Positions 1,815-63,238 of a DNA stretch of 64,000 nucleotides are shown here, piece after piece (the first letter of the stretch is position 1; every line of letters begins with the position of its first letter). The notes beneath the pieces were generated by a model. That model saw only the letters and a list, made by a program, of their open reading frames with translations. It had not been told where the DNA came from and did not search any database. The position numbers were made by a program, and so were the translations under genes. Origin of the DNA: a virus (taxonomy: Duplodnaviria; Heunggongvirae; Uroviricota; Caudoviricetes). Where the stretch lies: the IMG/VR virus record IMGVR_UViG_3300045988_162656; one strand, written 5' to 3'.

Positions 1815-1951
1815 ATACATGAAAGAAGCTCACTCAGTGCAACTGATCGGTACATAGCACCAGACAAAGGAACGTTATTTTCTCGAACAAGAAAAGGTAG
1901 AAAACAAATTGTTTAAGGCCACAACTAGTGGCCTTAATGGAGAAGGGATGC

Positions 1952-2515
1952 TTATTGGCTATGGCTAAAAATCAAATGAGACACTTCATTTGGTTGTAGC
2001 TCGTCAAGATCCGGGGCCACAAAACCTTTTCCGAAAGACTTCACAAGTGATTCACCAGCCGCATCATTGTCACCTATTACGCGAAAGTCATACGGCAGCA
2101 TTGCCAGTTGACGACGTAATCCTGCTGAGAAAGTCGAACCTAACAGCGCCCACGAATTTCCGCCCGCGTTGTGCACTGCTGCACTTTTAAAAATCGACTC
2201 AGTTATCCATATCGGTCCATCTTTTAAAGGAAGATAGGTTCCCCATAGTAGCTGTCTGCCGTGCGCTCGTGTGAAATACCGGGCCATCTTCGGATTGCTA
2301 TGCTGCTTAGGAGCGCCTGGTCTGTATGTCTGATACCCGGCCAACATCCCATCAAACCTGTATAGAGGGAATGTAACAACTCCTTCGCTTTCATCGATCC
2401 ACTGTCTATATGGATGCACATCATAGCGGTAGTTACGAGTTAGCAAATGAGCTTCCAGCTTTCCAAATTTAGTCATAACTTCGCATCCCTCATAACACTT
2501 CCCATTTATCACCAT
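1952..2515 (-). CDS. hypothetical protein, possible TOPRIM-like acidic motif (VIGDNDAAGE)
   Basis: 187-aa ORF in the co-directional operon; motif call is by eye only. Confidence 0.4.
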   Translation of the reverse strand: MVINGKCYEGCEVMTKFGKLEAHLLTRNYRYDVHPYRQWIDESEGVVTFPLYRFDGMLAGYQTYRPGAPKQHSNPKMARYFTRAHGRQLLWGTYLPLKDGPIWITESIFKSAAVHNAGGNSWALLGSTFSAGLRRQLAMLPYDFRVIGDNDAAGESLVKSFGKGFVAPDLDELQPNEVSHLIFSHSQ

Positions 2516-3344
2516 ATTTCTCCATAGCTCTTAGCCAATAAACATGGCCACTAGGCATAGTGATGTGAGGCTCGCCAAACTCTTCTCCATGTACATCAAA
2601 GATGTCCCCAACAGAAAATTGGGGGATTTCTGTTCCGTTTTCACCTATATGTGTAATTCGTATACGTTTCGGTTGGGATTGTCCACCTTTGAGCGAGTTG
2701 TTCACTGCTCTGGCAATTTTCTCCCGCAATTGCTGCGTTCCGTGATACGTAACCGCAATATCCCGCAACTCATTCACTAGTTCTCGAATTTGGTGATCTT
2801 TAAGCTCATTATTTGGGTGATTGGTAACAACTCTGGTTAATTCCCCATTGTCTTTTGCTCTTACGTATGCAGCTCTTGTGCATTCGCCCCATGTATTACC
2901 GCCTACATTAACTTCGTAGATTAGGCTGGACTTATCTGTCAATTCGGAACAAATACGGGCCGTGGTCTGGCAACTAGAGCATTCGCAGTTATCGCGGAAA
3001 CCGTGGTCTACTGGCTTCGGTTTAACATCATCAACTTTTTCTACCCTATTGGAATTTAAATACTTCGAAGCCTTGCTATGCCAATCGCTGGTTTTAGGAT
3101 CTTGTCCATCCATCAAACGCCAGGCTTCAGCTATTAACTCATAACTAGTGACTGTAGCTTCCTGCGCATCACCAATAAGTCGTGTAATCTCTCTTTCAAG
3201 CCGACCGCCTAACTCCGTTTTAGTGCAATGTTCTGACCAATCGCCAGTCTCAAGAAGCGCGAGAATGCTTAAAATATCGTCCAATAGAACGGTAGTATTA
3301 TCGACTTCCTTCTGAAACTCACCGGCTACTGATTTATGCATCAT
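2490..3344 (-). CDS. hypothetical protein
   Basis: 284-aa ORF, co-directional with neighbours. Confidence 0.45.
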   Translation of the reverse strand: MMHKSVAGEFQKEVDNTTVLLDDILSILALLETGDWSEHCTKTELGGRLEREITRLIGDAQEATVTSYELIAEAWRLMDGQDPKTSDWHSKASKYLNSNRVEKVDDVKPKPVDHGFRDNCECSSCQTTARICSELTDKSSLIYEVNVGGNTWGECTRAAYVRAKDNGELTRVVTNHPNNELKDHQIRELVNELRDIAVTYHGTQQLREKIARAVNNSLKGGQSQPKRIRITHIGENGTEIPQFSVGDIFDVHGEEFGEPHITMPSGHVYWLRAMEKYGDKWEVL

Positions 3345-3568
3345 TCGTCATCCTCATCCGAGTCATCCTCATCACAGGATGAGAGTAGTGGGTTAGTCAT
3401 TCGCCCTACTTGAGTGGCGTAGCCACGCCGACAGAGATTGCGCAGCACACTGTATATTTCGAACATCTCGGTTCGTTCATCGCCAACATCAAGCTCAGAT
3501 GCTATAGCGTGGCATTCAGTCGCGAGAGCCGATATTTTCTGAAATAACTCTGCTTTATTCACTCTTCG
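3341..3568 (-). CDS. small hypothetical protein with acidic C-terminal tail (DEDDSDEDDE), probable GTG start
   Basis: ORF 3341-3622 overlaps upstream gene; in-frame GTG at 3566-3568 preceded by aggag overlaps the upstream stop. Confidence 0.3.
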   Translation of the reverse strand, partial: RRVNKAELFQKISALATECHAIASELDVGDERTEMFEIYSVLRNLCRRGYATQVGRMTNPLLSSCDEDDSDEDDE

Positions 3569-4130
3569 ACTCCTGCGGAGGTTCTGGTAGCGGCATCCAG
3601 TGAGTTGCTTGCTCAATACCATTACCCGGCTTAATCGTTACATCTCCGCGCCGAAAGGTGATTCCGGTATAGCGTGCGGAGCATATTAGCGGTTCAACCA
3701 GAGAGCTATCGAAATTCACCGAAATAAGCACGTTCTGGCCCTTTTCAGGCATTCGCTCACTACAGCTTATCCAACCATCCGGAGTTACCGGATGGGGTCC
3801 AGCGAACTCGGGAATGTCAGGACCTTTTCTGATAGCTTTAGCCAGATCCAGCGGGTCATCGTAAAGCCAGTCGCCAGTTTGTGGGTGATTTGCTTCTGCA
3901 AGCTGCGCAGCCCATTCAAGACCATCTTTTTGACCTTGGAGATAATCAAGCGGCAACTCTTCATGATTACTTGCAGGTTCTGCACTATCAGCTTCGCGCC
4001 GCTTCTGTAGCTCTGCTGCCATCGCTCTCACGACTTCAACTGGTGCCCTTGCAGCAAACTCTATGTTGGTGATCAGCTCATTAAGATATTGCTCGCCTGG
4101 ATACTGTTTCTTATCGGTTATAGTGGTCAT
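3555..4130 (-). CDS. hypothetical protein, C-terminal DUF551-like region (GWISCSERMPE...VLIS)
   Basis: ORF trimmed to internal start MTTITDKK directly after upstream stop; domain call by recollection. Confidence 0.4.
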   Translation of the reverse strand: MTTITDKKQYPGEQYLNELITNIEFAARAPVEVVRAMAAELQKRREADSAEPASNHEELPLDYLQGQKDGLEWAAQLAEANHPQTGDWLYDDPLDLAKAIRKGPDIPEFAGPHPVTPDGWISCSERMPEKGQNVLISVNFDSSLVEPLICSARYTGITFRRGDVTIKPGNGIEQATHWMPLPEPPQESKSE

Positions 4131-4131
4131 A

Positions 4132-4518
4132 TCACTCTCCTTTTCCCTGAAGCATAGCAGCGCGGCAGGCATTCCAGCCTCTCACCTCTGCAATAGCGGC
4201 AACAGCATCAACCGCGTACATGCTAAGAGGATTAGGCATTGGTTTTTCTTCCGGTACTACTGGAACGGGTGGAGCGGCGTAGACCTCAATAATTCCATTA
4301 TCAATAGGCCATTCTCCATCCTTGAGGTAGTCACTTGTGCCGTCAACTTGCTGTTCTGCAATGTGGAATGCACCTATTGGTTTTGCTTCCAGCGATGCCA
4401 GAGCAATTCGTGCCAGTTCTTCCGCTTCTTCTGCTGGCAGTACAACGTTGCTACCAGGTCCGTATGTTTCGCGCCACTGTTTGATTGTCAGTAGTCGCTC
4501 TTTGGTAATAGTGGTCAT
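4132..4518 (-). CDS. hypothetical protein
   Basis: 128 aa, begins MTTITKE, ends GKGE with stop abutting next start. Confidence 0.45.
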   Translation of the reverse strand: MTTITKERLLTIKQWRETYGPGSNVVLPAEEAEELARIALASLEAKPIGAFHIAEQQVDGTSDYLKDGEWPIDNGIIEVYAAPPVPVVPEEKPMPNPLSMYAVDAVAAIAEVRGWNACRAAMLQGKGE

Positions 4519-4528
4519 GTGTTACTCC

Positions 4529-4792
4529 TTAACCCGCAGTGCTTTCAACTGATGAGGGGAACAAAATCTTTTCATCAAACCCTGCATTCATATCATGAAC
4601 AGCAACACACCAATCCATCGACGAACGATTATCAAGAGCCTCCATGATTTCATCCATGCAGCGCAGGTCATACAGGTAAATGCTTTTATCGCCAATGGTG
4701 TAAAAACCAATTTTTTTCGGTGATGGGCAGCGATCAAGAACGTCCTGTAATTCGTTCAACCATGCCCGTTCTTTTTTTGTTAAAGTTGCCAT
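4529..4792 (-). CDS. hypothetical protein
   Basis: start MATLTKKE at 4790-4792 preceded by aaaggagag RBS. Confidence 0.45.
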   Translation of the reverse strand: MATLTKKERAWLNELQDVLDRCPSPKKIGFYTIGDKSIYLYDLRCMDEIMEALDNRSSMDWCVAVHDMNAGFDEKILFPSSVESTAG

Positions 4793-4793
4793 A

Positions 4794-5315
4794 TCACTCT
4801 CCTTTGATGCGAATGCCTGTTGCAATGCTGTTTATGATGCTGTCAGTGCATGGAGTAGAAAGCTGGGCATCTCCAGCAATTTTCATGACCTCAACATCCG
4901 CATATCGAATACCGAGGTGTATCAGACCGGCTATACCTGACTTAAGTCGAACATTTTCCATAAACAGATCTTTTTCCCGCTGTTTAGCGGCTTCCAACTC
5001 CATCGACAATTTTTCCAACTGCTCTTTATGCTTCTTGTATTCCTGATACGCGTGCCAAGACTGACCTTTGCGCACACTATCAGTGATATCAGCAACCTGC
5101 TCCGGTGTTAGCGTGGTCAGTGGCTGTGCTGGAAAAATCATCACTTTCCCGGCATCCCAATCAAAACCCGCCTGAATTGACTGAACCTCAACTGATGGTG
5201 TTGAACCGATGCGACCAGGCGAATGAACAACGATCGTTACATCCATATCGCGACGATGGCTGTGGTTGTTGGACAAAATACGATTCACCAACTCAGAAAA
5301 TTTGGAAAATTTCAT
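4794..5315 (-). CDS. hypothetical protein
   Basis: ORF trimmed to MKFSKF start overlapping upstream stop (ATGA); ends GIRIKGE. Confidence 0.45.
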
Positions 5316-5635
5316 GCTGATCCCTCTTTCTCTCCCCGGATAATTCTGTTGCACACATCCACACACTCGTCGCAGATGAAAACGGCGTCCCCAGCAATTA
5401 ACTTTTTGACGGCGTACTGGGATTTGTTGCAGAAGCTGCAACAAAGTGTTCGCCTGACTGATAAGGATGGAGCGCCAGATGTCAGCCGCTCCATATCGTT
5501 CTTGCGACGCAATATCACACGGCTGAACTCAACCAGTTTCTCCGGGGATATCTCCTCCTCCGTAGCAAGCGCCTCTAATCGTTCGAGTATGTGGAAGGCT
5601 TTTTTCTGGGTAATTGCAGAATGCGATGTGGTCAT
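5312..5635 (-). CDS. small protein with C-terminal ClpX-type C4 zinc-binding domain (no AAA+ module)
   Basis: C-terminus [40 protein letters not shown] closely parallels the ClpX N-domain ([39 protein letters not shown]); start MTTSHS coupled to upstream gene. Confidence 0.6.
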
Positions 5636-5636
5636 C

Positions 5637-6167
5637 TCACTCTCCTTTGATGCGAATGCCAGCGGCGCGGGAATCATTCCATCGCTTTACTTCTTCACGA
5701 ATTACGTCAATGCATTCTTTCGAATCCATTAGGTAATCTTCATCAAAAAGACGTTCCTGTTCGTTTTCTATCGCAACAATGATTGCTTCAACTAACTTTT
5801 GTGCCTGAGAATCACTTTCTAACTCTGCTATGCGCTTACTTCCATCCGAGATAACGCCCTCGTAATACTCACGCTGCTCGTTGAGTTTTGATTTTGCCAA
5901 CTCCAGTTGTTTTGTTAGTTCCGCAATACGGCAAACATCGTTGATACGCGTTTCCTCTAATGCGTTGATCTCATCCAGTAGTGCCAGCACGGTTTCTGGT
6001 CCGGCCAGAAATTTGAAGGCGTTGAGGGCATCAATATCAACACCGCTATCTTTAAGTTCCTGTTCACTTAACAAGTCATCATCAGCTGGCAACATTAACA
6101 GGCGTTCCATTGCTGGAATTGCACGTTCCGCCACCTCACGCAGTGCCTGGTAATTAATTTCGCTCAC
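5637..6167 (-). CDS. hypothetical coiled-coil protein
   Basis: 176 aa, ends GIRIKGE; ATGA overlap with upstream gene. Confidence 0.45.
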
Positions 6168-6706
6168 TGGTTGCCTCCTTTGCGAAGCTGGGCAGCAAAG
6201 TCAACTAACCACTCAGTCATTTCAACCTTCCCTACCAGGTCTGAACCAGGGTGCATACAGCAATCACTCTGCGCCGCTTTGAAATCCTTATACTCATATT
6301 CTTGGGCCACCAGATTTTTTGCAGCTTCTATAGCAGCATCCACCCCCTGCGCACGTACTTCAGCCAGAAAAGCATCGGTGGCTGGAGTCTCCGTTAATTC
6401 GCTAACCCAATTATCTCCGTGTTCCTCGGCACACATCGCATCGAATGCTCGCTCAGATTCTTTCAGGGCTGCATTCTCCGCCGCTAATGCGTCTCTCTGC
6501 GCCCGCAACTTCTCAATTTCGGCAGCCATGTAGTAACCAACCATAGCGAAGACGGCAAAAGAGTTGTCTGCCTCATCAGGCGACACTGAGGCCATTAGCA
6601 GACCATCGTAATAATCGTGACTCCCATTGGTGATCGCCACCGCATAGGAGTCGTGGTTCTCACGCTTGTGAATGAGAACTACGGGGTTTTCGATTTTGTT
6701 ACTCAT
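6164..6706 (-). CDS. hypothetical protein
   Basis: 180-aa ORF with the conserved aaaaacacatg initiation region. Confidence 0.45.
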   Translation of the reverse strand: MSNKIENPVVLIHKRENHDSYAVAITNGSHDYYDGLLMASVSPDEADNSFAVFAMVGYYMAAEIEKLRAQRDALAAENAALKESERAFDAMCAEEHGDNWVSELTETPATDAFLAEVRAQGVDAAIEAAKNLVAQEYEYKDFKAAQSDCCMHPGSDLVGKVEMTEWLVDFAAQLRKGGNQ

Positions 6707-6844
6707 GTGTTTTTCTCTTCTTTGCTGTTACATAAGCACTACCAAGTGCTGGTTTATTTTCACAAATAAGAAAATGTAGAAAACAATTTATTTAAGGCCA
6801 CAACTTATGGCCTTTATTTATTCATGCCGAAGGATTTGTAGCGT

Positions 6845-7225
6845 CTAATTGCCGTATAAAATGGGGTGAGGTGCTTGCCAGTAGGCTCCACCGGTCCATG
6901 TGAACCCCATGCGAATAAGAGTGTTTATTGCGGCTTTGGTAGACTCCGATTCGACACTGGCTTTACGAAACTCTTGAACCTCTTTCGCCAACCTGTATGT
7001 AATTGTGCAGGGGACGATTGCAGCCCAGCCTTTCTCATGACTGTTAATGACCATCTGGATGTGACCATCCAGAATAGGTTGATTAGACATGTTATTGAAA
7101 ATGTCTGCCTGTTTTTGAATGTGAAGAAAAAGCCTTGCCAGCTCCATTTGCTCACTACGAGACAAGGGATTATCAAGAGGGCTTTTTGCAAAAGCGGCTA
7201 TACGCTGTGCGTCAATGCCAAACAT
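6845..7225 (-). CDS. hypothetical protein
   Basis: 126-aa ORF; stop overlaps start of upstream gene region. Confidence 0.4.
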   Translation of the reverse strand: MFGIDAQRIAAFAKSPLDNPLSRSEQMELARLFLHIQKQADIFNNMSNQPILDGHIQMVINSHEKGWAAIVPCTITYRLAKEVQEFRKASVESESTKAAINTLIRMGFTWTGGAYWQAPHPILYGN

Positions 7226-7929
7226 CAGCGCACCTCACCATCTTTATGGCTGGAGTTAACTTCCGCCATTAAATGTCTGACGTAATCGACAAGAGAGCCA
7301 CCTGGTGGAATCTGGCATTCCTCAACTAACTGGAAGTAGATATCCGCAGCATTACGTGTATTGCTACCCGCGCATATTCTTTCTTCCCGAAGTGCATGAA
7401 GCTCGTTGATCAAACGGTCACACTCTCCGTTACGCTGATCCACAACAGCCTCAAGTTCTGCGACGCGTTCACCTGGCGTCTTACCTTCTTCGCGTTGGAT
7501 GGTAACGACGAAATCGCCAATTGCAGGGACGTTGTAATCCAGCTCAAGGTAGTTTTTGGCACCGCTGCGGACGAACTCACCCGCGAACATGGTGGCGAAC
7601 ATCTCAGAGGCCATTGTGCTGTTGAAAAGTGACTCCAGATCTAACGGAGTCCCGGCAGCCAGAGCCTCTTTTGCTGTATCCATTGTATCCATGAACCGAT
7701 CAAACTCATTAGCGCGCTTTTCCAGGTCTTTCCATTGCTCGCTCCAACGTTTGGCAATGAAGTCTATGAATGTTTTCGCGGATTCATCAAAATCCCCCTC
7801 AAACTTAACGATGCCTTTATCAATAATGATCTGGCCTACCGCATCCTCTGCATAACCTTTCAATGTAAACTTGAAAGGAAAATCAGAATGGCCTGTGACG
7901 TTAAAATGCTCTAACTGGAGGTTGTTCAT
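7225..7929 (-). CDS. hypothetical protein
   Basis: 234-aa ORF, first gene after a promoter-like palindrome at 7964-7984. Confidence 0.45.
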   Translation of the reverse strand: MNNLQLEHFNVTGHSDFPFKFTLKGYAEDAVGQIIIDKGIVKFEGDFDESAKTFIDFIAKRWSEQWKDLEKRANEFDRFMDTMDTAKEALAAGTPLDLESLFNSTMASEMFATMFAGEFVRSGAKNYLELDYNVPAIGDFVVTIQREEGKTPGERVAELEAVVDQRNGECDRLINELHALREERICAGSNTRNAADIYFQLVEECQIPPGGSLVDYVRHLMAEVNSSHKDGEVR

Positions 7930-7990
7930 ATGTTTTTCTCTTATCGTTTAGTTATTACATTCTTACACAAATTAAGTAAGTATTTACCTA

Positions 7991-9676
7991 TCATTTAACG
8001 CGTTTGAAAACGTATACGCTGACTGTGATCCCTGTGTCTTCAAACTCGTTGGTAAACGACTTCCCTCTGGCATAAACGTAATTATCCATCGTCATCCAGT
8101 CCAGTATTGGCGCAGTGCCCGGCAATACTGCTACAAGACGCCCGCCGACTTTCAGATGCCCCAGCGCAGCCAGCGTGTGCTCTCTATGACGACCAAGCGA
8201 GTACGGCGGGTTCATAACGATTTTGTCGAACTGATAACCTGCGTTGTCCTCAGACCACTTTATGAAGTCGCAGCAAATCGTGTTCGTATACCCTTTTCCA
8301 CGCAGGATATCAGCGAAGAGAGGTGCGATTTCTATGCAGGTAACATCTTCCAGATCGGCGTTAATATAGGCCAGAAGATCCCCACGTCCGGCTTGAGGCT
8401 CCAACAGCTTCTCACCAGGCTTCAATTCAGTGGCTCTGGCAACGTACTCAGCAATCAAGCGTGGGGTAGGGTAGAACTGGTGTGATTTTGTATCCGGTAT
8501 TAAACCGGTAGCCACAATCGTATTTAGCGTATGGCCGATCTCATACGGGAACTGCCAGTGCTTTTTCTCCTGCACGCCGCCAATGAAGCTCAGTGTGCGC
8601 TCAAGCTCTTCCACCTGCGACTTCTGGAGAGCTGAATCAGAGAAGTACCATACGCCTTTGTCTTTGCTCAATCGCCCGTCACGAAGCGCAGTGCGAACCG
8701 GCACGGAGATCGTCTTCTGGATTAACCCGAACTGCTTTGGTGCCCGTGTTTTTGGCGCAGTTCGGCATGGCGCGGGGATTGCAGCAGGCATACTGTAAGC
8801 CAGCACCTCATTCAACTTCCAGGCCACGTCAGGATGTATTTCAAAGTGAACGTTGCCGTTCTTGAACATCTTCACGCGCATCAGATTTCCATCGACGTTC
8901 ATCCAGTCACCGGTCTGGCAGTCGTTTGCCCGATACGCAGCTGATAGCACCTCAGCAGTGCGGTTGATGGTAATAAATTCTTTGTGCGCGAAGAAATGAA
9001 GCAAGACACGCAGATCGTCGATGTAGTCCTCTTTGCGATAGTTCACGCTAACGCTGTCACGCCAGAAATCAGAAATGCAGTCAGCGATTATCAGACGCTC
9101 GCTGAAACCGTTTGTCTTATTTGTCTTGTGCGCAGGACTCAGCGCCTTAAACAAGCCATACACGCGCTCAGAGAGATATTTGTGCCTGTCATTCAGCAAA
9201 TTAAGCATCGTTGGTATGACCGTTTCTGCTTTGAACTCCGGTACACCAACGAACTCTTTAACCTTCATCTGATAGCCGGTTCTGTCAGTTTTGATGACTT
9301 CCTGCTTGCCCTCGATAAATAGCTCACGCCACTCGTCGCGACGGGAAGCTGGCATGATCAGCAGAACGTTAGTCATATCCGTAACCTTCCTCCAGTACTC
9401 GGCCCAAATATTCTGTTTCACCCATTCCAGATCGACGTTATCCAGCCAGACTCGATTCAAACGTGAGCGATCTTCATCTGGTCGGTGGTTTAGTCGAAGC
9501 AGGCGATTAATCATGTTGTGGCGTTCATCGCCATAAACGAAGTCGTGTACCTGATACATGAAGGAGATCTCTTTCTCGCACTCGGCCACAATTTCGTGGA
9601 TGACGTTCATTTCCTGTCGATAGTCGATAGCAGTGTTTGAGCTGGCATCGCCCATGATGGAAAGGGCTGTATTCAT
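7991..9676 (-). CDS. DNA methyltransferase (amino-MTase, NPPY motif) with ~380-aa N-terminal domain of unknown function
   Basis: C-terminal FYPTP ... EPQAGRGDL ... NPPY motifs typical of N6-adenine/N4-cytosine MTases. Confidence 0.65.
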   Translation of the reverse strand: MNTALSIMGDASSNTAIDYRQEMNVIHEIVAECEKEISFMYQVHDFVYGDERHNMINRLLRLNHRPDEDRSRLNRVWLDNVDLEWVKQNIWAEYWRKVTDMTNVLLIMPASRRDEWRELFIEGKQEVIKTDRTGYQMKVKEFVGVPEFKAETVIPTMLNLLNDRHKYLSERVYGLFKALSPAHKTNKTNGFSERLIIADCISDFWRDSVSVNYRKEDYIDDLRVLLHFFAHKEFITINRTAEVLSAAYRANDCQTGDWMNVDGNLMRVKMFKNGNVHFEIHPDVAWKLNEVLAYSMPAAIPAPCRTAPKTRAPKQFGLIQKTISVPVRTALRDGRLSKDKGVWYFSDSALQKSQVEELERTLSFIGGVQEKKHWQFPYEIGHTLNTIVATGLIPDTKSHQFYPTPRLIAEYVARATELKPGEKLLEPQAGRGDLLAYINADLEDVTCIEIAPLFADILRGKGYTNTICCDFIKWSEDNAGYQFDKIVMNPPYSLGRHREHTLAALGHLKVGGRLVAVLPGTAPILDWMTMDNYVYARGKSFTNEFEDTGITVSVYVFKRVK

Positions 9677-9779
9677 AATTGCACCATTAAGAAATGATTT
9701 GTTTAATGATGCAATTATTTCAAAAATAAAAAGGTGCTAAATAGAAATTAACAGGCAATACTTAAAATAAAGGCATTGA

Positions 9780-10454
9780 CTAATCATACTTGGATGTATT
9801 TATAACCAGGACTTTATTTGTATATAGTTTTTTTACATTCCATGTAACATTACTTGAATACCATTCACCATTATATATTTGGTTTCCCGTTGCGCCTGTC
9901 ATTGTTACGTATACAGGTCTGTCGTAAGGTGTTCGTCTATAGTTATATACTCCAACCATTGCAGGCATTATCGCACACGGGTATCCCATATTTATGGTAA
10001 ATTGAGGATTTGTAATAGTGATAATCTCTGCATCAAGGGGCATCATCTCACCGTGATATACCATTTTACCTGCGCTATTATACATGGCAATACCATATCC
10101 TGAATGTGGTAACACCATATCAGAAAAAGCATAAACTGTTATCGTTCCGGGGTTTCCTCCAACCTGATTCAGTCTGAGAACATTATACCCATCTCTAAAT
10201 TCATGAACGAACATCATATTCGCCTTATTACTGCTTTTTATAAAGAAAAAACATGATTTGTTCGACGGTATTGAAGTCTTAAAAACAGAACCTTTAGACG
10301 TGGACATTGTCCCCCTATTAATCAAATTTTGCGGTGTAAATTCTGGACTCATCCACACATTACCATTTGACTGAGTAATTGACATCCCGAACATTATTGT
10401 TATCCCCAATATGTATATATATAAGATCCAAGTCCCTTGTATAAATTTGACCAA
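9780..10454 (-). CDS. hypothetical N/Y/T-rich protein with hydrophobic N-terminus, in an AT-rich island
   Basis: ORF in strongly AT-rich segment 9677-10700; atypical composition versus neighbours; start uncertain. Confidence 0.3.
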   Translation of the reverse strand: MVKFIQGTWILYIYILGITIMFGMSITQSNGNVWMSPEFTPQNLINRGTMSTSKGSVFKTSIPSNKSCFFFIKSSNKANMMFVHEFRDGYNVLRLNQVGGNPGTITVYAFSDMVLPHSGYGIAMYNSAGKMVYHGEMMPLDAEIITITNPQFTINMGYPCAIMPAMVGVYNYRRTPYDRPVYVTMTGATGNQIYNGEWYSSNVTWNVKKLYTNKVLVINTSKYD

Positions 10455-10735
10455 CTTACTGTATTGCCGTTAATAGTGATAGTTGGTGTAGGTATATTTA
10501 CATGGTTATCGTTATTTAAAGGCATCAATGAGCACACAGCATGTAATGATTTGCCAGGTGGTGGATTTGGGTAAGTCTTAGAGCCTGACGTGGTTGTAAA
10601 TCGATCAAGAAAAAAAATAGGAGTAAGGAAGCCGGTAACGTTAACTCCCTTATTATTGTAGATCCCTGTACCGTATGCCATTTTTCATCCTTGTTTTTAT
10701 CAACATAATATGGCCGATCATGCGGCCATATCAGA

Positions 10736-11305
10736 TCAATTAGAGCTTTGAAAGGCTTTGTGTGGCTGTGTTGCGAGGTTATGTCGATGGCTTAACTCAC
10801 GCATCATGTCTTCAAGGCGACTCTTTGTGTCGTCGAGTTGGTCAGCCATTGCTCCTAAAAGCTGACGAACTACCATCGGATCGTCGCTGTTTAGTGATGG
10901 CATTTTATAACCCGCCTGAGAAGACATCAGATTGAATGCTGACATCAACATCGTTAGAGAGGATTTAAGCCCGGCAATTTCACGATCTTTGCTGGCAATA
11001 ATCGTCTCACTTTTGTTACTGTCATGAGTTCCTTGAGTCTCGATCACCATATCCAAAGTCTCTTGCAACTTATCAGCTCTCTGTTTTTCAGCAAGATAAT
11101 GAACACCGAAATGATGTGCTAAAGCTACAACCTGAGTTGGCTCTTCAAAGGTGGACTCAAAATTAAGTGCTGTAACCACTCTCTCAAAAATGGAAACGTC
11201 TTCTATTCCTCGAAGAATGGCTAACATTTTGACAAGTTCATTAGCATCCATTTCTTCGAATAGGGCGTTTTGTTCATCAGCTATTGCTTTGCATTTCTCG
11301 CACAT
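10736..11305 (-). CDS. hypothetical protein
   Basis: 189-aa ORF with palindromic motif aaacaagttgttt 17 nt upstream. Confidence 0.4.
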   Translation of the reverse strand: MCEKCKAIADEQNALFEEMDANELVKMLAILRGIEDVSIFERVVTALNFESTFEEPTQVVALAHHFGVHYLAEKQRADKLQETLDMVIETQGTHDSNKSETIIASKDREIAGLKSSLTMLMSAFNLMSSQAGYKMPSLNSDDPMVVRQLLGAMADQLDDTKSRLEDMMRELSHRHNLATQPHKAFQSSN

Positions 11306-11602
11306 ATGTTTTCCTTAATGCTTAAACAAGTTGTTTTCTTATTGGCTTTATTGTGATGTGGCATAAAAGGGGAGCAAGCTAAACGTAAAGGTGCAAACTC
11401 TCTATTTCGGTCAACGAAACACAATGGCCATTTGACCCTTGTCATTAACACGTTGCTTTACGGACTAGCGGATAAGCGAAGTAGATCGCCAGACCAATGA
11501 GGACGCCATCAGAAATGACAGACATCATCTTTCCCGTAAAATCCACCAACACCGCCATCACCAGAAGAGCAATGACGGTCACAAGCCGGAATCTCTCAAG
11601 CA

Positions 11603-12028
11603 TTAGAGATAAACATCCAGTGACAACTGAAGCGCCTGGGCGATCTTTTTCAGCGCCTGCTCTTCTGGTTCATCAATGCCGTCTTGGTCGGCAATATCAA
11701 GGCACAGACAAAGTACATCTACTGCATCATCAGTCCCGGCCACATCCGCCAGCTCACGTAAAGCCTGGGCATTAGCACGGCGCGGTGAGGCTTCGTATTG
11801 AGCGCGGATATTGGCGCTCATCTGGGCAATCTCACCAGCAAAAGGAGAAAATGCAGGCAGAGCTGCAATTGTTTTCTCAAGAATGGAAATTTCTTTTGCA
11901 TCGCATGTACCGTTGGCATAGGAGATCATGTACCCACCCCACACGGTGGCTTCAACCGCATCACGGTTCTCCATTTTTTTGACTTCGATAACTGCTTTAC
12001 GAGTTTTCTTTTTGAAGAAACCTAACAT
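11603..12028 (-). CDS. hypothetical protein, possibly TerB-like
   Basis: 141-aa ORF; weak resemblance to TerB/DjlA-N type helical domain by eye; palindromic motif upstream. Confidence 0.3.
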   Translation of the reverse strand: MLGFFKKKTRKAVIEVKKMENRDAVEATVWGGYMISYANGTCDAKEISILEKTIAALPAFSPFAGEIAQMSANIRAQYEASPRRANAQALRELADVAGTDDAVDVLCLCLDIADQDGIDEPEEQALKKIAQALQLSLDVYL

Positions 12029-12121
12029 GTGTTTTCCTTTTGTTATTGGTCAAAACAAGTTGTTTTCTAGTTAAATAAATTGCTTACGCAAAGACGGTCA
12101 ATGCATATGCACTAACAACCG

Positions 12122-12310
12122 TCAGAAATAACCAAGTACCGAACCGACTGGAAAAATAAAAATCCCAACTACACGAGCCAAGGTCATGCCAGCCTGAAAC
12201 TGGAGATCGCCAGAGCAAACAAGTTTTATAATGTTCGATACCCAACCGGCGGCCATGAGGGCAAGAATTGCCAGCCAAATTTTTCCAAAGTGATTTGAAA
12301 ACCAGTTCAT
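12122..12310 (-). CDS. small membrane protein
   Basis: 62-aa ORF with two hydrophobic segments. Confidence 0.3.
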   Translation of the reverse strand: MNWFSNHFGKIWLAILALMAAGWVSNIIKLVCSGDLQFQAGMTLARVVGIFIFPVGSVLGYF

Positions 12311-12319
12311 ACAACCGCC

Positions 12320-12835
12320 TTAGTCACAGCATGATCCTGAGTAACTGGATGAACTTGAGGTATCGCATCCACCGTCATCCCATCCAGAGTGACAGGTCGC
12401 TCTACTGGAGTGGTGGTAATTGTCGTCGACGGAGGTGTGGTGATGGATGAATCCGGCATCAAAAGGCTCTGACCGGCTGGAACGGCTACCGTCGCCAGTG
12501 AAACTATAATGAGAACGTAGGCCATTGGTTTCAGCCTCTTTCTTTGAAAATTTTCCATTCGAACTGTCCTTGTTGTTTTTCTCCTTCACTAAAGGCCGTG
12601 CATTTTTCGCTTCGCGTGAAGAACCAGAGGCAACAATCGCCCACACGTTCGCAACAACTGACGCTTGATTATCTAAACGTTCATTCAGCAACCGAACGGT
12701 AGTCTCTAGTTCATCAAGGCGTGACATAACACGACCGCTAAATAATTCGGCCAAAATTTGACGTAAAGAACGAGGACGTTTAGTTACAGAAGTGAAATAG
12801 GTTTGACGTGCCATGTGGACTCCATCCAGTGTCAT
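12320..12835 (-). CDS. hypothetical protein with coiled-coil N-terminal region and Ser/Cys-rich C-terminus
   Basis: 171-aa ORF; overlaps alternative-frame ORF 12307-12558 encoding a hydrophobic-N-terminus Pro/Thr-rich peptide. Confidence 0.3.
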   Translation of the reverse strand: MTLDGVHMARQTYFTSVTKRPRSLRQILAELFSGRVMSRLDELETTVRLLNERLDNQASVVANVWAIVASGSSREAKNARPLVKEKNNKDSSNGKFSKKEAETNGLRSHYSFTGDGSRSSRSEPFDAGFIHHHTSVDDNYHHSSRATCHSGWDDGGCDTSSSSSYSGSCCD

Positions 12836-12959
12836 AAAGAGTTGCGGCTGGCAATCGCCAGCCGCCTTTCTCGTTCCATCCTGGAACTGTGTCTTACCGA
12901 CACATTGTCATCCTGACGCCGATAAGATACATGATTTATAATGATAGGTAAACACTTAC

Positions 12960-13553
12960 TTACTGTTTGTTATAAACAAAACCAATATCTTTCTTGTGAG
13001 GCATATCTGCTGCTGAAAAAGCTGCGATCTTCGCGAGTCGATCACATATTTCATTTTCACGATGCCCGGCGTGACCTTTAACCCACTTCCAGCGAACATT
13101 ATGTCGACTTGCGGCCTCATCCAGACGCTTCCACAGATCAACATTCTTTACCGGTTTTTTGTCAGAAGTCATCCATCCATTGCGTTTCCACCATTTCATC
13201 CACTGTGTCATGCCGTTTTTCAGATACTGGCTATCAGAGTGCAAAATAACGTTGCATGGATATTTCAAACGCTCCAGCCCGATAAGTGCCCCCATCATCT
13301 CCATGCGGTTATTGGTGGTGCTATGAAAACCATCTGAGAACTCGCGTTCCTCGCCACGATACTGGAGAACGATACCGTAACCGCCCGGGCCACCCGGATT
13401 TTTAAGGCAAGAGCCATCACTAAAGATTTTCACGGTTTTAAGCTGGGGATTGAACTCTACGACAGGCGTTGTGGGATTGGTGCGGGGAGAATTTTTGTTT
13501 TTGTCTTTTTTGCGAGTTTTTGCTTGCGGTCGGGCTGGTGTCTTCGTTGTCAT
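12960..13553 (-). CDS. rnhA: ribonuclease HI with basic N-terminal extension
   Basis: [42 protein letters not shown] motifs; start trimmed to MTTKTPARP with aggag RBS. Confidence 0.8.
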
Positions 13554-13649
13554 ATAAACTCCTGAATCAAGCGCCGCGCCGATTTTTCCTCGCGCGTGCG
13601 CACACGCGTGCGTGTTAATAATTATTAAAATAAACAAATTACTTCCCAG

Positions 13650-14030: not shown

Positions 14031-14134
14031 GTGACGCTTACCCCCACCCATCAGGTCGAGTCTCCAGTCTACGACTGGAAACTATCAGATCTTAGCACTT
14101 ACAATTCATCTTATGAATAGTTTGTACTTATCTA

Positions 14135-14389: not shown

Positions 14390-14552
14390 AAAATCGATTT
14401 TAAAGCGTCTGGGAAGGGGGTCTAGTGGATTCTGTAGTGATGTTCAGGTCTGGAGTCTCTGATACAAAACAGCCTGCTTCCGTATATTAATAATTAATAT
14501 GTAGTTATTTATATATATACAGAAGCAGGCTAATTACAGACGCCAGAACAAA

Positions 14553-15146: not shown

Positions 15147-15328
15147 CTTCTTTCTCGATAGGTAAGCAAATACCTATTTTTGCATTTGATTTTATGTATG
15201 GCAATCAAATAAAACGCGCCAGAAATGCGAACAAGAAGCTCTCTGGCGCGTTTTTTTGGTGCTGGGTATGGGTTATCTTACCCAGCACTATAAAGCTCTC
15301 TATGGGCTTTATTTTCAGTAGGGGAACG

Positions 15329-52888: not shown

Positions 52889-52964
52889 TGGTGCCGGTTA
52901 GCGGACTCGAACCGCTGACATCCTGCTTACAAGGCAGGCGCTCTACCAACTGAGCTAAACCGGC
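52889..52964 (-). tRNA. tRNA-Thr (anticodon TGT)
   Basis: acceptor GCCGGTT/AACCGGC, D-arm AGCTCAGTTGGTAGAGC, anticodon loop CTTGTAA, T-loop TTCGAGT, CCA encoded. Confidence 0.85.
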
Positions 52965-53060: not shown

Positions 53061-53135
53061 TGGCGATGGTGGGTGGATTCGAACCACCGACCAGTTGGTT
53101 AACAGCCAACTGCTCTACCGCTGAGCTACACCATC
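53061..53135 (-). tRNA. tRNA-Asn (anticodon GTT)
   Basis: acceptor GATGGTG/CACCATC, anticodon loop CTGTTAA, T-loop TTCGAAT, CCA encoded. Confidence 0.85.
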
Positions 53136-53895
53136 AATTCAGCACTGCCAGTATTTATTACTCAACAGTGCCAATCGCGGCGGTGTTAGTTTCTGCCAGG
53201 AAACGCACCGCTACTTGCACTTTTTCGTTAGTGTCAGACGCTTTCGACTTCTCTCAATAGAAGGCAAAATCTTTAAGTAGATGATGTTTCTGAGGACAGC
53301 ACCTACTTTGTAATTTATACAATGTGATGTATGGAATCATTTGTTGTGGAAAAGTGGTTAAACCTACACAACAATCCTGTCTTCACAACGTTGAGGCCAC
53401 TACTCCGATTGAATGTTTGCCCAACATGTTACATATCAACGCTCGCCGGTATCTCTGTGAATAGAACCTTAGAATTGATAAAAATGTAATGGCCTCAACG
53501 TTGTGTGCTGGCTAACCATACCAGCCGGGCTACGTCGCCGCTTTTTAACCCAGTATAAACGACATAATTGAACAAAATGACGTAACAGAATGGGCGGTCA
53601 GTGGCTAAGAATCCGGGAGTCATATGGAGTTGAAAATATACCGACCGCCCATTCTGTTACTTCATCGGAGGGAACATGAGTGTTCCCTCCTGCGTTCTGC
53701 AATCACACTCGCTCAGTGTGTCCCATTTCGGTAACGAGGCTGGAAACTGACCTCGCTGGTGTTTGGCTTATTAGGCTACTGCCAGATAGACTTCTTCGTT
53801 TGCACTTGTATTTAAGTTCAAACAGTCGCATCTCAACGAAAACAAAGTCATCTTATACACAAAGGATAAGTAAGTAAATACTTATCGATATGTTT

Positions 53896-54186: not shown

Positions 54187-54335
54187 TTTCTAACCTTTGT
54201 TTCATGAACTACCCGATACACACGCTTTCCGATGCACAGTGTTTTGGTTTTAAGTTCCTGCTTAATTAAATCACGACAGATGCCGAAGCCGATAAGGAAG
54301 CCACCAATAAAAGCTAATGAGATGTATGGAATCAT
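54183..54335 (-). CDS. small membrane protein (50 aa; below ORF-track cut-off)
   Basis: hand translation MIPYISLAFIGGFLIGFGICRDLIKQELKTKTLCIGKRVYRVVHETKVRK; stop/start overlaps on both sides. Confidence 0.3.
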   Translation of the reverse strand: MIPYISLAFIGGFLIGFGICRDLIKQELKTKTLCIGKRVYRVVHETKVRK

Positions 54336-54547
54336 TTTAACACTCCTGATTCTACTAATTGCTGTAGCAATACTTTCCCTTTATCAGTTAACTGGTAGTT
54401 GGCTGAGCACCACGTTTCCGAAATGTTTGCAACCAACCCTAAACGCTCTAAATTAGCTCGCGTTTTAGGCTTCCAGTACTGAGGGAACTCCGGCCACTTA
54501 CTTATTTCATGAAGCGTTTCTTTCTCCCGTTTACTTAATACGATCAT
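54332..54547 (-). CDS. hypothetical protein
   Basis: 71 aa, coupled downstream of ligase gene. Confidence 0.35.
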   Translation of the reverse strand: MIVLSKREKETLHEISKWPEFPQYWKPKTRANLERLGLVANISETWCSANYQLTDKGKVLLQQLVESGVLK

Positions 54548-55866: not shown

Positions 55867-56345
55867 TGTTGTTTTACCTCCATATGTTGATCGATTTGCT
55901 CATGTGTTTCTTTTGTTGTTTCTTCAAGCAACGCCGCATACACGTCAGTGATCGCTGTTTGTGATGTGGTGCTCTTCTTAACCATGCTATTAATCGTTAC
56001 ACTGTCACGTTTTCGTTTTAAAGTTCTGGCTTGTTTATTCCGTTCTTCAACCTCCTTAATGAGCGCGGTCATATCTTCGAAATACAGAGATTCTCCTTTA
56101 CGAATCTCTTCAACCATCATTTTTAACGCCTTGCATTTGCCTGCTTTGATAGCGGTTGCGCACGACTGGAATGAAGTTCGAGGAAGACGGTTTTCTTTGA
56201 AGGCAAGAATGGTGTGCTGGCAAACGGAGTAGCTGCAATATGCCGACTCACCGTTTATCTTTACTTCCTCACAACGAAGTGAATAACCATTATTTCCTGA
56301 AATAGAGGGGATTTTTGACAAATCAGCTTTCACAACTACCGCCAT
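55863..56345 (-). CDS. hypothetical protein
   Basis: 160-aa ORF overlapping ligase start by 4 nt. Confidence 0.4.
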   Translation of the reverse strand: MAVVVKADLSKIPSISGNNGYSLRCEEVKINGESAYCSYSVCQHTILAFKENRLPRTSFQSCATAIKAGKCKALKMMVEEIRKGESLYFEDMTALIKEVEERNKQARTLKRKRDSVTINSMVKKSTTSQTAITDVYAALLEETTKETHEQIDQHMEVKQQ

Positions 56346-56400
56346 AAATAATCTTGTACTTACCTATCGTTATTTGCGTAAAAAACGACGCGCGGAGAGA

Positions 56401-57177: not shown

Positions 57178-57252
57178 ACCAACTCCTAGCTAACAGATGA
57201 AAGTATTCTCACAGAAAGATAAGTAATCATCTACTTATTTTAAAGGTGATTG

Positions 57253-59856: not shown

Positions 59857-59899
59857 GTGCTTTCCTTTGTTTTTTAAACAAATTGTTTTCTAGTATTAG

Positions 59900-60649
59900 T
59901 TAATTAGATAGGGGATCAATAAACCGCCGTGCTTCTTCCAGTTCTTCTGGAAAGTGGGCGGAAATAAGGCGCTCTGGAACGATTTCCATTAGCCAGATAG
60001 CGGAGAAAATTGCGCGTATGCGCTTGCTGCGAGGGATGGTGCGCAAACACTCCAGAATCCACTCAAAATAGCTTTCCTGAATCGGGTTGAACTGCATGTC
60101 TCCCATATGCTTAAAGCTAACAAGAGAGTCATCCAGACGGGTTGTTGCGCGTCTGGCTAATTTCTCTTCGAATATCTCAACCAGCTCTGGCTGCCACAAA
60201 TGCTGTGGGCGCGGCAGCTTGTCCCACAGCCGTCGTGCAGCTGCGGAAAGAACGGTGGAGATAAAGTAGTCGTATGAGCAGCAATAGCGGTCAGCAAACT
60301 GGCGTGCTTTCCATAGAGACGTTTTATTGGCAGTCGACAACTCCTGATAAGGCAGGCGTTTTAACCCGGTGGTGAACGGAGCTGTTTCAAAGTGTTCGCG
60401 ACCGTGCGTCAGCATGATATTTGAGTACTGACGTTTGTATGCCTCCGTAAACAGACAGGTGGCCATAAGAGGATGCATGTCTCGGTAATCAAACCACTTC
60501 GTCTCGAAGAGTTCAGCCTCGTCTTTACAGCGCGACAAACCAATGTTTTCAGCGACCCACTTGTCCATAACAGCGGTATTCCACTCTGTCATGAAGTCGT
60601 ACTGGTCGTTGTCGATGGTATCGAAAAAGATTTGGCTCATGTGGCTCAC
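59900..60649 (-). CDS. hypothetical protein
   Basis: 249-aa ORF. Confidence 0.4.
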   Translation of the reverse strand: MSHMSQIFFDTIDNDQYDFMTEWNTAVMDKWVAENIGLSRCKDEAELFETKWFDYRDMHPLMATCLFTEAYKRQYSNIMLTHGREHFETAPFTTGLKRLPYQELSTANKTSLWKARQFADRYCCSYDYFISTVLSAAARRLWDKLPRPQHLWQPELVEIFEEKLARRATTRLDDSLVSFKHMGDMQFNPIQESYFEWILECLRTIPRSKRIRAIFSAIWLMEIVPERLISAHFPEELEEARRFIDPLSN

Positions 60650-60914
60650 CTGGTAGGTAGTTACTTACTTATCACAATGGACGGATGATAGCGACTGGTG
60701 TCAGTTTTTGGAAGTGAAAACGGAAGGGAGTTGTTCTGGTGGTGTCTTTTAAAAGACCTGCTTCCGTATATATTTAATAAGTTACTTATTATTTATATAC
60801 AGAAACAGGCTCCTAATGGATACCAAGAACAACATAATTTGACTCCAACTCCAGATGCTATGTCATTGACAGATTTATCAAGGGAGATCATGTTAGAATT
60901 AGTGTTTTAGCCTC

Positions 60915-61988: not shown

Positions 61989-62048
61989 CTTTCATAGAAC
62001 GAAATATTTCTAAGGCTGTCCAATGCAGACCAGCCTTAGAGATTTATA

Positions 62049-62408
62049 TCAACCTTTCTTCATTAACTCGCGTTTAATTTCATCGGTACGCATCGTGACA
62101 TCGGCAGCAGTGATCGCCTCGTTAAGCTTCACGATGTCCTCGATTTCCTGCGGTGACTTCTCTGCCAGATGGAAAATAGCAGCACGAATCACATCAGAGC
62201 GGGTGAATTTCTCGAAGCGAGGGATGAACTTCATCATCTCCAGCAGTTCGAAGTATTCGTCCTCCAGTGACATTGTGCGGCTTTTAATTTTCTCTTTGCC
62301 ACGAGTCGGGCGTCCCTGTGGTCTGACTGGTTGGCGCAAAGGAGTTGTGTTCTTAGCCGGTGCATCAGACTCTTTGCGCTTTGCTAGGTCACCCATTTTC
62401 ATGGACAT
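62049..62408 (-). CDS. small basic DNA-binding partition protein candidate (ParG/ParB-like)
   Basis: 119 aa, basic N-terminus; stop overlaps nothing, start abuts parA stop; classic parA-small-gene operon layout. Confidence 0.4.
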   Translation of the reverse strand: MSMKMGDLAKRKESDAPAKNTTPLRQPVRPQGRPTRGKEKIKSRTMSLEDEYFELLEMMKFIPRFEKFTRSDVIRAAIFHLAEKSPQEIEDIVKLNEAITAADVTMRTDEIKRELMKKG

Positions 62409-63076
62409 TATTCTTCTTCCTCCAGACTCAACAGATAATCTACAAATTCTTCAAACTCGGCTTCCGCCTTTTTGTCGCGCTCGCTACCGGTCATTTCAAA
62501 GATAGAACGACCAGACTCTTCCGCATCATCATAGACGTTGCGGTTATATAGATTGACTGGCGCAGACTCGATGCCAAACGTCTCAACAATCTCTTTAGCC
62601 GCCAGAATGCGAGACACTTGTGATGGCAAAGCCGGGCACTGGTTCATGACCGCGCGGACCTTCACTTTATCGTTTACATTGCGAACATTGTCGATAATAG
62701 GATCGATGTCACGTAAAGATTTCAAATCACGACGCTTAGGACGCAGCGGGATAATGATAACGTCAGCCATCAGCATCGCTTGTCGCTGAATTTCGGAGTC
62801 GAAGCCACCAGCATCTACCACTACAAACTCAGCTCTACCCTGAAGCGATTTTAGGTGCTTAATGATGTCATCCTGAACGTATGCAAAAGGAATCAGCTCA
62901 AGGTCTTCGTTCTGTCGACGGTCTTCACACCAGCTCGTTGTCGTGCGCTGAATATCTATATCGGTAATATAAACCTTCTTCTTCTTTTTGACTTTCAGGC
63001 AAACGGCAATTTGCTGGGCAACGGTGGATTTGCCAGGCCCGCCCTTTGTGCCGCCAACCACAAAGATCTTGGTCAT
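62408..63076 (-). CDS. parA: ParA-family partition ATPase
   Basis: deviant Walker A GGTKGGPGKST; 222 aa. Confidence 0.8.
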   Translation of the reverse strand: MTKIFVVGGTKGGPGKSTVAQQIAVCLKVKKKKKVYITDIDIQRTTTSWCEDRRQNEDLELIPFAYVQDDIIKHLKSLQGRAEFVVVDAGGFDSEIQRQAMLMADVIIIPLRPKRRDLKSLRDIDPIIDNVRNVNDKVKVRAVMNQCPALPSQVSRILAAKEIVETFGIESAPVNLYNRNVYDDAEESGRSIFEMTGSERDKKAEAEFEEFVDYLLSLEEEE

Positions 63077-63238
63077 TGGAGAGTTTCCTTTGCGTCTATT
63101 ATTATTGTCTGAAACAACTTGTTTTCTTATATGTGATATAGCCTAAATGCCTACGGCTGCTGTGTAAAGGTTTAATGATAGGTACATAGATTTGGTAAGG
63201 ACTTAATAACAAAAAACCCGCCGTAGCGGGTTTAGGAA

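Follow-up and report, generated by a model that had tools for sequence, protein, structure and literature searches.

The C1 repressor of phage-plasmid P1 acts at many operators spread over the phage-plasmid genome, including one for the replicative-helicase gene. In the IncP-1 plasmids RK2/RP4, the dispersed palindromic operators of KorA and KorB serve replication, partition and core control, and KorB is also a partition protein (PMC11790492, PMC2665229). In pSM19035, the sites of omega, a ParB protein of the ribbon-helix-helix (RHH) type, overlap the copS, delta and omega promoters (PMC9499535). Here we describe a set of dispersed sites, termed M1, in a 64,000-nucleotide stretch of viral DNA (IMG/VR record IMGVR_UViG_3300045988_162656; this whole stretch is referred to as the window), which by sequence identity is an SSU5-like phage-plasmid of Enterobacteriaceae. 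The M1 motif is real and not a product of chance, and it is probably the operator of an element-encoded, dimeric, sequence-specific repressor that would control ∼20 host-type (sigma-70) promoters.

The M1 consensus is (T)AGAAAACAA-N-TTGTTT(A/T)A; the strong copies in the window read AGAAAACAA-N-TTGTTTAA, and the 17-bp form is GAAAACAAGTTGTTTTC. Exact matches to AGAAAACAA-N(0-6)-TTGTTT occurred five times in the window and 0.00 times in shuffled sequences. With up to three mismatches allowed, the 18-mer AGAAAACAANTTGTTTAA was found 10 times against 0.43 expected, a count reached by no shuffle, which places M1 far above the shuffled background proposed as its test in a preliminary description of this DNA. 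Nine of the 10 matches were the sites listed in that description, all of whose palindromes were present where it had placed them, and the tenth (12214-12231) was weak. AACAA-N-TTGTT is the most frequent exact palindrome of the window, with all seven copies in non-coding DNA, which makes up ∼15% of the sequence. All nine strong M1 copies are intergenic in substance; a 56-amino-acid (aa) open reading frame (ORF) called over the 11322 site by a crude ORF caller was judged spurious. In the position matrix, the 9-bp arm AGAAAACAA is strongly conserved, the centre is uninformative, and the other arm is the 6-7-bp TTGTTT(A/T).

Where 15-25 nt had originally been proposed, seven sites have 14, 16, 16, 17, 22, 28 and 33 nt between the 18-mer and the start codon, and the 6778 and 1899 sites have 71 nt and 119 nt, respectively. 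The latter two have the reversed orientation and lie upstream of a -10 element, away from the ribosome-binding site. The supposition that every site heads a transcription unit also needs correction: the helicase and 12051 sites lie in gaps of 43 and 55 nt between co-directional genes. Because some copies end 10-16 nt before a start codon, they are not upstream promoter elements of that gene.

The promoter context of M1 became apparent in the wider family. The 385 matrix hits from all fetched loci were pooled and, once those with flanks within 30% of each other had been merged, gave 124 contexts. The recurrent unit in these contexts reads cc(g/t)TAAACAAnTTGTTTTCT, 16 nt, TGnGATAAT, AACACCAACA, AGAAAACAAnTTGTTTAA, GGAG, 5-8 nt, ATG. 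The repeated cassette measures ∼85 bp and comprises an upstream operator (O1, centre ∼-38), 16 nt, the extended -10 TGnGATAAT, 10 nt, a downstream operator (O2, at ∼+5 to +22), the ribosome-binding site, which O2 abuts, and ATG; the O1 and O2 positions assume a start ∼7 nt after the -10 hexamer. A -10 hexamer ends 8-11 nt (mode 10) before M1 in 51 contexts (GATAAT 22 times, TATTAT 11 times, TG upstream in 28), and 28 contexts have the -10 on the other side of M1, at exactly 16 nt in 26 of the 28 and with TG in 25. All 13 twin-operator cassettes show a start-to-start offset of 50 bp, equal to 51 bp from centre to centre. The commonest gap between M1 and ATG across the family is 9-12 nt, with GGAG directly after M1, and the family's regulon members are mostly small accessory genes, annotated without function, behind the repeated cassette. 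As expected for a repressor operator, the site overlaps or flanks a predicted core promoter or start, both by these -10 spacings and at the parA promoter.

Conservation in relatives was examined at the level of both whole elements and single sites. A complete 109-kb relative carries ∼20 M1 sites of at least 20 bits, whereas its shuffled versions gave 0-5 hits of at least 12 bits, and its 28-kb virion-structure module (33.6-61.6 kb) holds no M1 site. A pair of M1 copies, 25 bp apart and with a GC hairpin after them, lies upstream of the terminase small-subunit gene (L003 11640-11700, which corresponds to CP054387.1 61640-61700), and therefore the motif reaches the head of the packaging/structural operon, outside the window. 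The cobT, helicase and parA copies are kept in SSU5, in two Klebsiella lineages and in Enterobacter, Cronobacter, Kluyvera and Buttiauxella elements. Orthologous sites are conserved at 77-80% nucleotide identity, and in alignments with 67-89% mean column identity the M1 columns are invariant and the flanks diverge. In distant lineages (L133, L134 and L142), both the parA copy and the cobT copy form a perfect 17-bp palindrome, GAAAACAA-N-TTGTTTTC, and at the cobT site the asymmetric flanks are flipped between lineages. Taken together, the palindromes in distant lineages, the flip at cobT and the invariant columns point to double-stranded DNA recognised by a symmetric dimer; dyad symmetry and occurrence in either orientation are also what a repressor operator should show.

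Within the window, the 1899 and 6778 sites are O1-only cassettes. The first (1899-1916, plus strand; minus-strand reading TTAAACAATTTGTTTTCT) has the O1 orientation and is centred at ∼-38 of a predicted promoter, whose putative -10 hexamer GAAAAT (1877-1882, minus strand) lies 16 nt downstream of the operator and is preceded by CGA, not TGn; a terminator-like hairpin, AAGGCCACTAGTTGTGGCCTT (1915-1935, minus strand), closes the upstream gene and abuts the operator. The second (AGAAAACAATTTATTTAA, 6778-6795, plus strand), also in O1 orientation, lies within a ∼90-nt repeated element shared with the 1899 copy. An extended -10, TGTGAAAAT (6752-6760, minus strand), 16 nt downstream of this operator, is predicted to serve the 180-aa gene at 6164-6706, and a terminator-like hairpin, AAGGCCATAAGTTGTGGCCTT (6794-6814, minus strand), abuts the site. 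A small RNA on the plus strand at 1899/6778, where M1 is followed by a hairpin, was ruled out, there being no plus-strand promoter and no T-run. A LexA (SOS) box, TACTGTGTAAATGAACAGTA, at 1796-1815 (minus strand) is just upstream of a UmuD-like S24 peptidase gene (1390-1779); thus, an SOS-type site lies between the 1899 cassette and the S24 peptidase start codon. LexA boxes were also seen ∼35 nt upstream of the -10 of M1 cassettes in several relatives.

Further copies in the window include a decayed cassette and a copy of the downstream-operator type. A decayed cassette at 9690-9722 (minus strand), upstream of the 561-aa gene at 7991-9676, consists of the extended -10 TGAAATAAT, 10 nt and a degenerate M1, AAACAAATCATTT (9692-9704); a relative has a perfect M1 at the place of this decayed O2. 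The copy at 11322-11339 (minus strand) is of the O2 type and lies 16 nt before the ATG of the 189-aa gene at 10736-11305, with a -10-like CACAAT ending 10 nt upstream and a decayed O1. The 12051-12068 copy (minus strand) is 22 nt before the ATG of a TerB-like gene (11603-12028), and a weak promoter alone is visible there (TTGACC at 12096-12101). At 35790-35807 (minus strand), M1 is 14 nt before the ATG of 34951-35775 (DUF1281_C/Api92-like); TATTAT ends 8 nt upstream, and a terminator hairpin is found at 35835-35852. The three-gene block directly downstream (33753-35775) is absent from PhiR41_1 and Cyrano (window 35776-35870 compared with L001 5640-5740 and L005 11590-11690), and by this comparison the M1 cassette at 35790 is the mark of an accessory-gene insertion junction.

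The other copies are associated with nrdB, cobT, the helicase gene and parA. An M1 variant, GGATAACAACTTGTTTAA (22268-22285, minus strand), covers the -10 and +1 of a putative nrdB promoter (TTGTAA-16-TAGGAT, 22282-22309, minus strand) located downstream of the nrdA terminator-like hairpin (22321-22339), and lies 28 nt before the nrdB ATG (22237-22239). What had been called a second half-site at 22288-22302 (minus strand) is present in the sequence but is really an everted palindrome, TTGTTTAAACAA, in the spacer of this putative promoter. The cobT copy, TGAAAACAAATTATTTAC (48203-48220, plus strand), is 16 nt before the cobT ATG and is flipped with respect to the orthologous SSU5 site. A perfect M1 at 59874-59891 (minus strand) precedes the helicase ATG by 17 nt, and a possible weak promoter, TTGATC-16-AATACT (59892-59919), lies in part within the upstream gene. 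At parA, the copy that is most widely conserved in the family (63110-63127, minus strand) occupies ∼+6 to +23 and precedes the ATG by 33 nt. It begins 12 nt after the parA promoter (TTTACA-17-TAGGCT, 63140-63168, minus strand), whose position is conserved in six lineages although the spacer sequence has diverged in the alignment.

These positions bear on the kind of site that M1 represents. At extended -10 promoters the host sigma-70 polymerase suffices, and no activator is needed. Positions -38 and +5 to +22 are inside the polymerase footprint, and the operator positions vary (∼-38, -21, -2, +3 and +14), which is repressor-like and unlike an activator site or a promoter element, so that a repressor operator is favoured. 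From the sequence we infer that the promoters are active, that regulation is by repression and that O1 and O2 cooperate. The host polymerase would fire the extended -10 promoters unaided, and a protein at -38 and/or +5 to +22 would keep RNA polymerase off the promoter or hinder its escape; O1 and O2, 51 bp apart (∼5 helical turns), could be bound cooperatively. The parA copy and the two nrdB copies overlap their own predicted promoters, and at the helicase and 12051 sites M1 may serve as a roadblock or else target a weak internal promoter. The predicted regulon would include parA, nrdB, cobT, the helicase-primase unit and many accessory genes, as well as the terminase operon in a relative. Of the two explanations first offered for the palindromes, a dimeric DNA-binding regulator agrees with the flipped cobT orientation, the perfect palindromes in distant lineages and the variable position relative to the promoter, and a phage-specific promoter element finds no support in sites that flank or overlap host-type promoters (TGnGATAAT at a fixed distance, and the TTTACA-17-TAGGCT of parA). 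The accompanying proposal of one regulon stands in that the shared motif joins parA, the helicase/primase unit, cobT and nrdB, but it was incomplete with respect to the small accessory genes that form most of the family membership, and the regulation itself is a reading of the motif.

We next consider which protein might bind M1. Our best candidate, put forward tentatively, is a 119-aa ParA partner (62049-62408, minus strand), RHH-like by sequence pattern and encoded directly after parA, because its own operon carries the best-conserved M1. Four phage-plasmids from four genera share an invariant stretch at residues 25-119 of this protein, and homologues with as little as 48% identity still have the KSRT-x-S-x-E strand and the FTRSDVIRAA helix. 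Its basic tail, KSRTMSLEDE segment and helices at 48-60 and 70-84 fit the sequence pattern of an RHH protein, and it gave a weak match, below the cut-off, to the RHH family aCcr1 (E=2e-4). Its transcript (CYRAN_29) is ∼9-fold above the prophage background in an LF82 lysogen (PMC9928086). The adjacent ParA partition ATPase (62408-63076, minus strand; 222 aa) is small and Walker-type, without an N-terminal DNA-binding domain, as in type Ib partition (NCBIfam ParA_partition E=1.9e-33, below the curated cut-off; CbiA/MipZ/AAA_31 Pfam matches on homologues). The array-type centromere expected next to a type Ib parA operon was not found; a single M1 and no tandem array lie near parA. It is possible, if somewhat doubtful, that the ParA partner binds M1 and that a partition protein would thus be the global repressor of the cassettes, the helicase-primase unit, cobT, nrdB and terminase, with the ∼20 operators doubling as partition sites.

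Other proteins were also considered. The helix-turn-helix (HTH) immunity repressor (48747-49133) was rejected as the binder, as its own control region holds a GGTAAGTGCTTACC-type site of another motif and not M1. Since the immunity region (HTH repressor/divergent early gene) carries this other palindrome, M1 probably defines a second regulon. SSU5 is without the HTH repressor gene yet keeps both motifs, and this comparison is non-discriminating. A 71-aa winged-helix-like protein (54332-54547) and unannotated small proteins are other candidate binders. The FljA-like regulator of Cyrano belongs to a flagellin-repressor family and was treated as an accessory gene unrelated to M1. This gene, CYRAN_114 (L145 30560-31081), is annotated as a transcriptional regulator and matches the FljA family (phase-1 flagellin repressor) with E=1e-80; it may be an accessory gene affecting host flagella.

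Several observations weigh against a repressor operator, or against the RHH-like protein as its binder. The M1-linked promoters are consensus matches, predicted only, and they emerged through cross-family pooling alone. A generic sigma-70 scan of window positions 1-20000 found 25 sites against a shuffled expectation of 30.8, with none flagged on the gene strand at M1 sites, at a threshold of 9/12 that some M1-linked promoters do not reach (TTGATC-16-AATACT, for example, scores 8/12). No convincing promoter belongs to the helicase copy or the 12051 copy, and the cassette spacings may be fixed through shared ancestry of duplicated cassettes and not through functional constraint. The dyad symmetry pointed out in the preliminary description fits a DNA site for a dimeric regulator, but the informative part of M1 is asymmetric in the window's lineage. 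For the candidate itself, a sequence search of the PDB gave no significant match and Pfam gave none, the AlphaFold model has a pLDDT of 63 with no Foldseek match, and hhalign gave no match to ParG or omega. In one lineage the homologue is 40% identical and retains the strand residues, yet the parA promoter is without M1 at +6 and has only an 18-bit copy near -87; two lineages more distant still have no M1. The comparison of motif and protein covariation counts at most slightly against the candidate, in a family that is too small and too uniform (18 clusters in a set of 1.8 billion proteins, and only 6 loci in the genome collection) and with distant-lineage contigs that end before the helicase region.

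Alternative functions for M1 were weighed against the same evidence. Dispersed centromere (parS-like) sites for the ParA/RHH system, with any effect on transcription secondary, would be in keeping with the best-conserved M1 in the parA promoter and with the lack of a tandem-repeat centromere by parA or elsewhere except for the RepA iterons; in pSM19035, moreover, RHH-type ParB sites overlap promoters and are scattered on the plasmid (PMC9499535). However, in pSM19035 a pair of inverted subsites serves ParA poorly as a cofactor, the requirement being four or more contiguous repeats (PMC9499535). The genome has no array of M1 half-sites, the rigid placement at -38 and +5 to +22 in ∼80 independent contexts suggests that selection has acted on transcription, and the fold and binding of the RHH-like protein are predicted only, so we regard a centromere as unlikely. 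It is rather improbable, too, that M1 is an activator site or part of a phage-specific (middle-gene) promoter turned on after infection or induction. The ∼-38 copy is near the class II activator position, and in units headed by a second palindrome, ATARGTA-N6-TACYTAT, many M1 sites come after a terminator hairpin, like a second temporal class; yet the +5 to +22 copy reaches the ribosome-binding site, which is unusual for activators, and GATAAT extended -10 promoters are expected to work unaided. The M1 centres range from ∼-38 to ∼+14 with respect to the sigma-70-like -10 instead of keeping a fixed distance, and the relatives' annotations contain no phage RNA polymerase or sigma factor.

Recognition by a host Enterobacteriaceae transcription factor would account for the constancy of M1 over Escherichia, Salmonella, Klebsiella, Enterobacter, Cronobacter, Kluyvera and Buttiauxella elements and for its fading in the most distant lineages, but ∼20 sites on a 109-kb element, its own partition operon included, are the pattern of a self-encoded global regulator, and a host factor appears quite improbable. 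We know of no E. coli regulator with the M1 consensus, and to our knowledge the KdgR, PurR, CusR, KorA-like, PhoP, LexA and NrdR boxes differ from M1 in spacing or arrangement. An mRNA-leader element, either a translational operator or a processing site 10-33 nt before start codons and sometimes over the ribosome-binding site, is suggested by the seven of nine window sites that lie 14-33 nt from ATG and by the GGAG that follows M1 directly at the commonest family gap. Against this, the orientation of M1 relative to transcription is variable (the O1 copies and the cobT site are inverted), the O1 copies lie upstream of the -10 and outside the regulated mRNA, and a dyad with a one-base centre cannot make an RNA hairpin. 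Folding of seven 5'-untranslated leaders gave z values of -0.5 to +0.5, no stabler than shuffled sequences, and an Rfam search of the window found two tRNAs only and no family at the M1 leaders; we therefore hold a leader element to be very improbable. Finally, M1 repeats could be the scars of a duplicated, recombination-prone cassette at module junctions, with no binder at all. The rigid cassette spacings, the change of gene content directly downstream of M1 at 35790 and the cassette fragment common to P1-like phage-plasmids would agree with such an origin, which is hardly credible given that M1 also stands outside the cassette on unrelated promoters (parA, nrdB, cobT and helicase), where it is invariant amid diverging flanks, and that the palindromic core is retained though the flanking asymmetry flips. 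The operator of a repressor thus remains the reading that we favour.

Variants of the cassette were seen in other elements. An IMG/VR contig (L014) has an O1 copy followed by extra direct repeats of the half-site AGAAAACAA, irregularly spaced in the ∼110 nt beside it, and half-site arrays of this kind seemed visible by eye in other contigs; none was found in the window or in CP054387.1. The repeats suggest the 9-mer AGAAAACAA as the binding unit. A fragment containing the hairpin, O1 and the extended -10, near-identical to the 1899 element, occurs in some P1-like phage-plasmids (L144 2985-3045, Punavirus P1 MH422554.1), and also in MH445380.1, MH445381.1 and Salmonella phage SJ46, near lxr/humD/phd-doc and pointing at a convergent gene. 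Judged by this near-identity, the fragment looks like the result of exchange between two phage-plasmid families.

The second motif, ATARGTA-N6-TACYTAT, is a 20-bp palindrome found 17 times in the window against 0.43 expected, and 12 times in SSU5 against 0.17 expected. It lies upstream of nrdA, sbcD, ssb, cobS, dam, thyX and other genes, and its last bases often run into a -10-like TATnAT. Copies in the window are at 7972-7991, 12944-12963, 15158-15177, 19997-20016, 24706-24725, 29390-29409, 32897-32916, 36938-36957, 40458-40477, 46024-46043, 53866-53885, 56344-56363, 57219-57238 and 60653-60672, and a related copy at 48706-48722 stands beside the HTH repressor in the immunity region. This palindrome may be the operator of the HTH repressor as well as a promoter motif, and several M1 sites lie inside units that it heads.

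A 7.3-kb stretch of the window is 100% identical to Escherichia phage CMS-2020a (CP054387.1), 97% to PhiR41_1, 94% to Cyrano (pLF82) and ∼80% to Salmonella phage SSU5, and a 301-bp probe has matches in 722 plasmid records of Klebsiella, Escherichia, Enterobacter, Salmonella, Citrobacter and Cronobacter. The minus strand carries the majority of the window's genes. By the annotations of relatives, the gene set includes nrdA/nrdB, SbcCD, RepA with iterons, RecA, SSB, DnaE and CobS/CobT, together with the HTH repressor and an integrase, ligase, primase, helicase and ParA. About 13 iterons, ACCGCTGACAGCATA, lie at 31593-32171 and 30372-30477, on either side of a RepA/RepB-family initiator gene (30378-31592, plus strand), and 30265-30318 is rich in GATC/GGATC with 12-bp repeats; the iterons and this stretch near the RepA gene are presumed to form the plasmid origin. 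Large palindromes of ∼55-90 bp, GCCTGCTTC(C/T)GTATATAT...ATATATAC(G/A)GAAGCAGGC, occur at three places (14463-14552, 60750-60815 and L003 11720-11790). Their AT-rich centre resembles the ATARGTA-N6-TACYTAT motif, and they could be bidirectional terminators or a lytic origin.

The initiation context ACAAAGGAAAAACACATG is unusually uniform over many genes, regardless of the upstream motif (for example, at 29278-29295, 33211-33228, 36998-37015 and 46078-46095). Two tRNA genes (52892-52964 and 53064-53135, minus strand) were found with Rfam at 76 bits each, and the crude ORF calls in that region are spurious. Host-like housekeeping genes are also present on the element: apbC/mrp lies in the window (252-1352, plus strand), and metG is adjacent in relatives (NZ_CP025868.1 12037-15328). 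The apbC homologue of Cyrano is labelled MinD and is transcribed in the lysogen.

Clinical Escherichia, Klebsiella, Salmonella and Enterobacter commonly harbour SSU5-like phage-plasmids, some of which carry resistance genes. With operator and cassette defined, there would be a testable map of a second regulon in addition to that of the immunity repressor, co-regulated accessory genes could be predicted, and repressor titration would offer a way to force induction or plasmid loss. If the ParA partner were the binder, these elements would supply a phage-plasmid example of a partition protein as a global regulator, and segregation and copy number would be coupled to the silencing of lytic and accessory genes in resistance-carrying Enterobacteriaceae phage-plasmids. 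No paper on SSU5-like regulatory circuitry was found in the literature searched, and the literature on promoters, operators and centromeres yielded no description of M1 or its cassette in SSU5/pHCM2-type elements, with one 2026 preprint on phage-plasmid promoters outside this coverage. Thus, the kind of regulation is familiar, and for the SSU5-like family no description of it was found.

Among known systems, M1 may be set beside omega of pSM19035. Both involve a small Walker ParA and a small partner with a basic N-terminal tail, the sites overlap promoters scattered on the replicon, and one protein would serve both partition and global repression. The M1 subsites are inverted, as in omega sites (PMC9499535), and direct-repeat half-sites were seen by eye in one relative, L014. 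M1 differs in consisting of two ∼9-bp subsites with a one-base centre, whereas omega binds arrays of 7-10 heptads (WATCACW); the candidate binder has no detectable sequence similarity to omega, and its RHH fold and its binding are predicted. The host of M1 is a gamma-proteobacterial phage-plasmid, with phage replication genes in the regulon. KorA and KorB share with M1 the use of short dispersed palindromic operators that place core functions under one or two repressors. Unlike M1, which is fixed close to promoters, KorB is an HTH ParB CTPase clamp able to act at a distance; KorA is also an HTH protein, and the operators OA (TGTTTAGCTAAACA) and OB (TTTAGCGGCTAAA) differ from M1. P1 C1 is likewise a phage-plasmid repressor with many dispersed operators, but these are asymmetric 17-mers bound by a monomer, and the immunity region here carries the GGTAAGTGCTTACC-type motif. 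The CUP elements of IncN plasmids and the T4-type PeSL cassettes resemble the ∼85-bp promoter cassette in standing before small accessory genes at module junctions, and differ from it in sequences and regulators. Although membership in the omega, KorA/KorB or C1 families is not demonstrated, by analogy the logic of M1 matches that of these plasmid global regulons.

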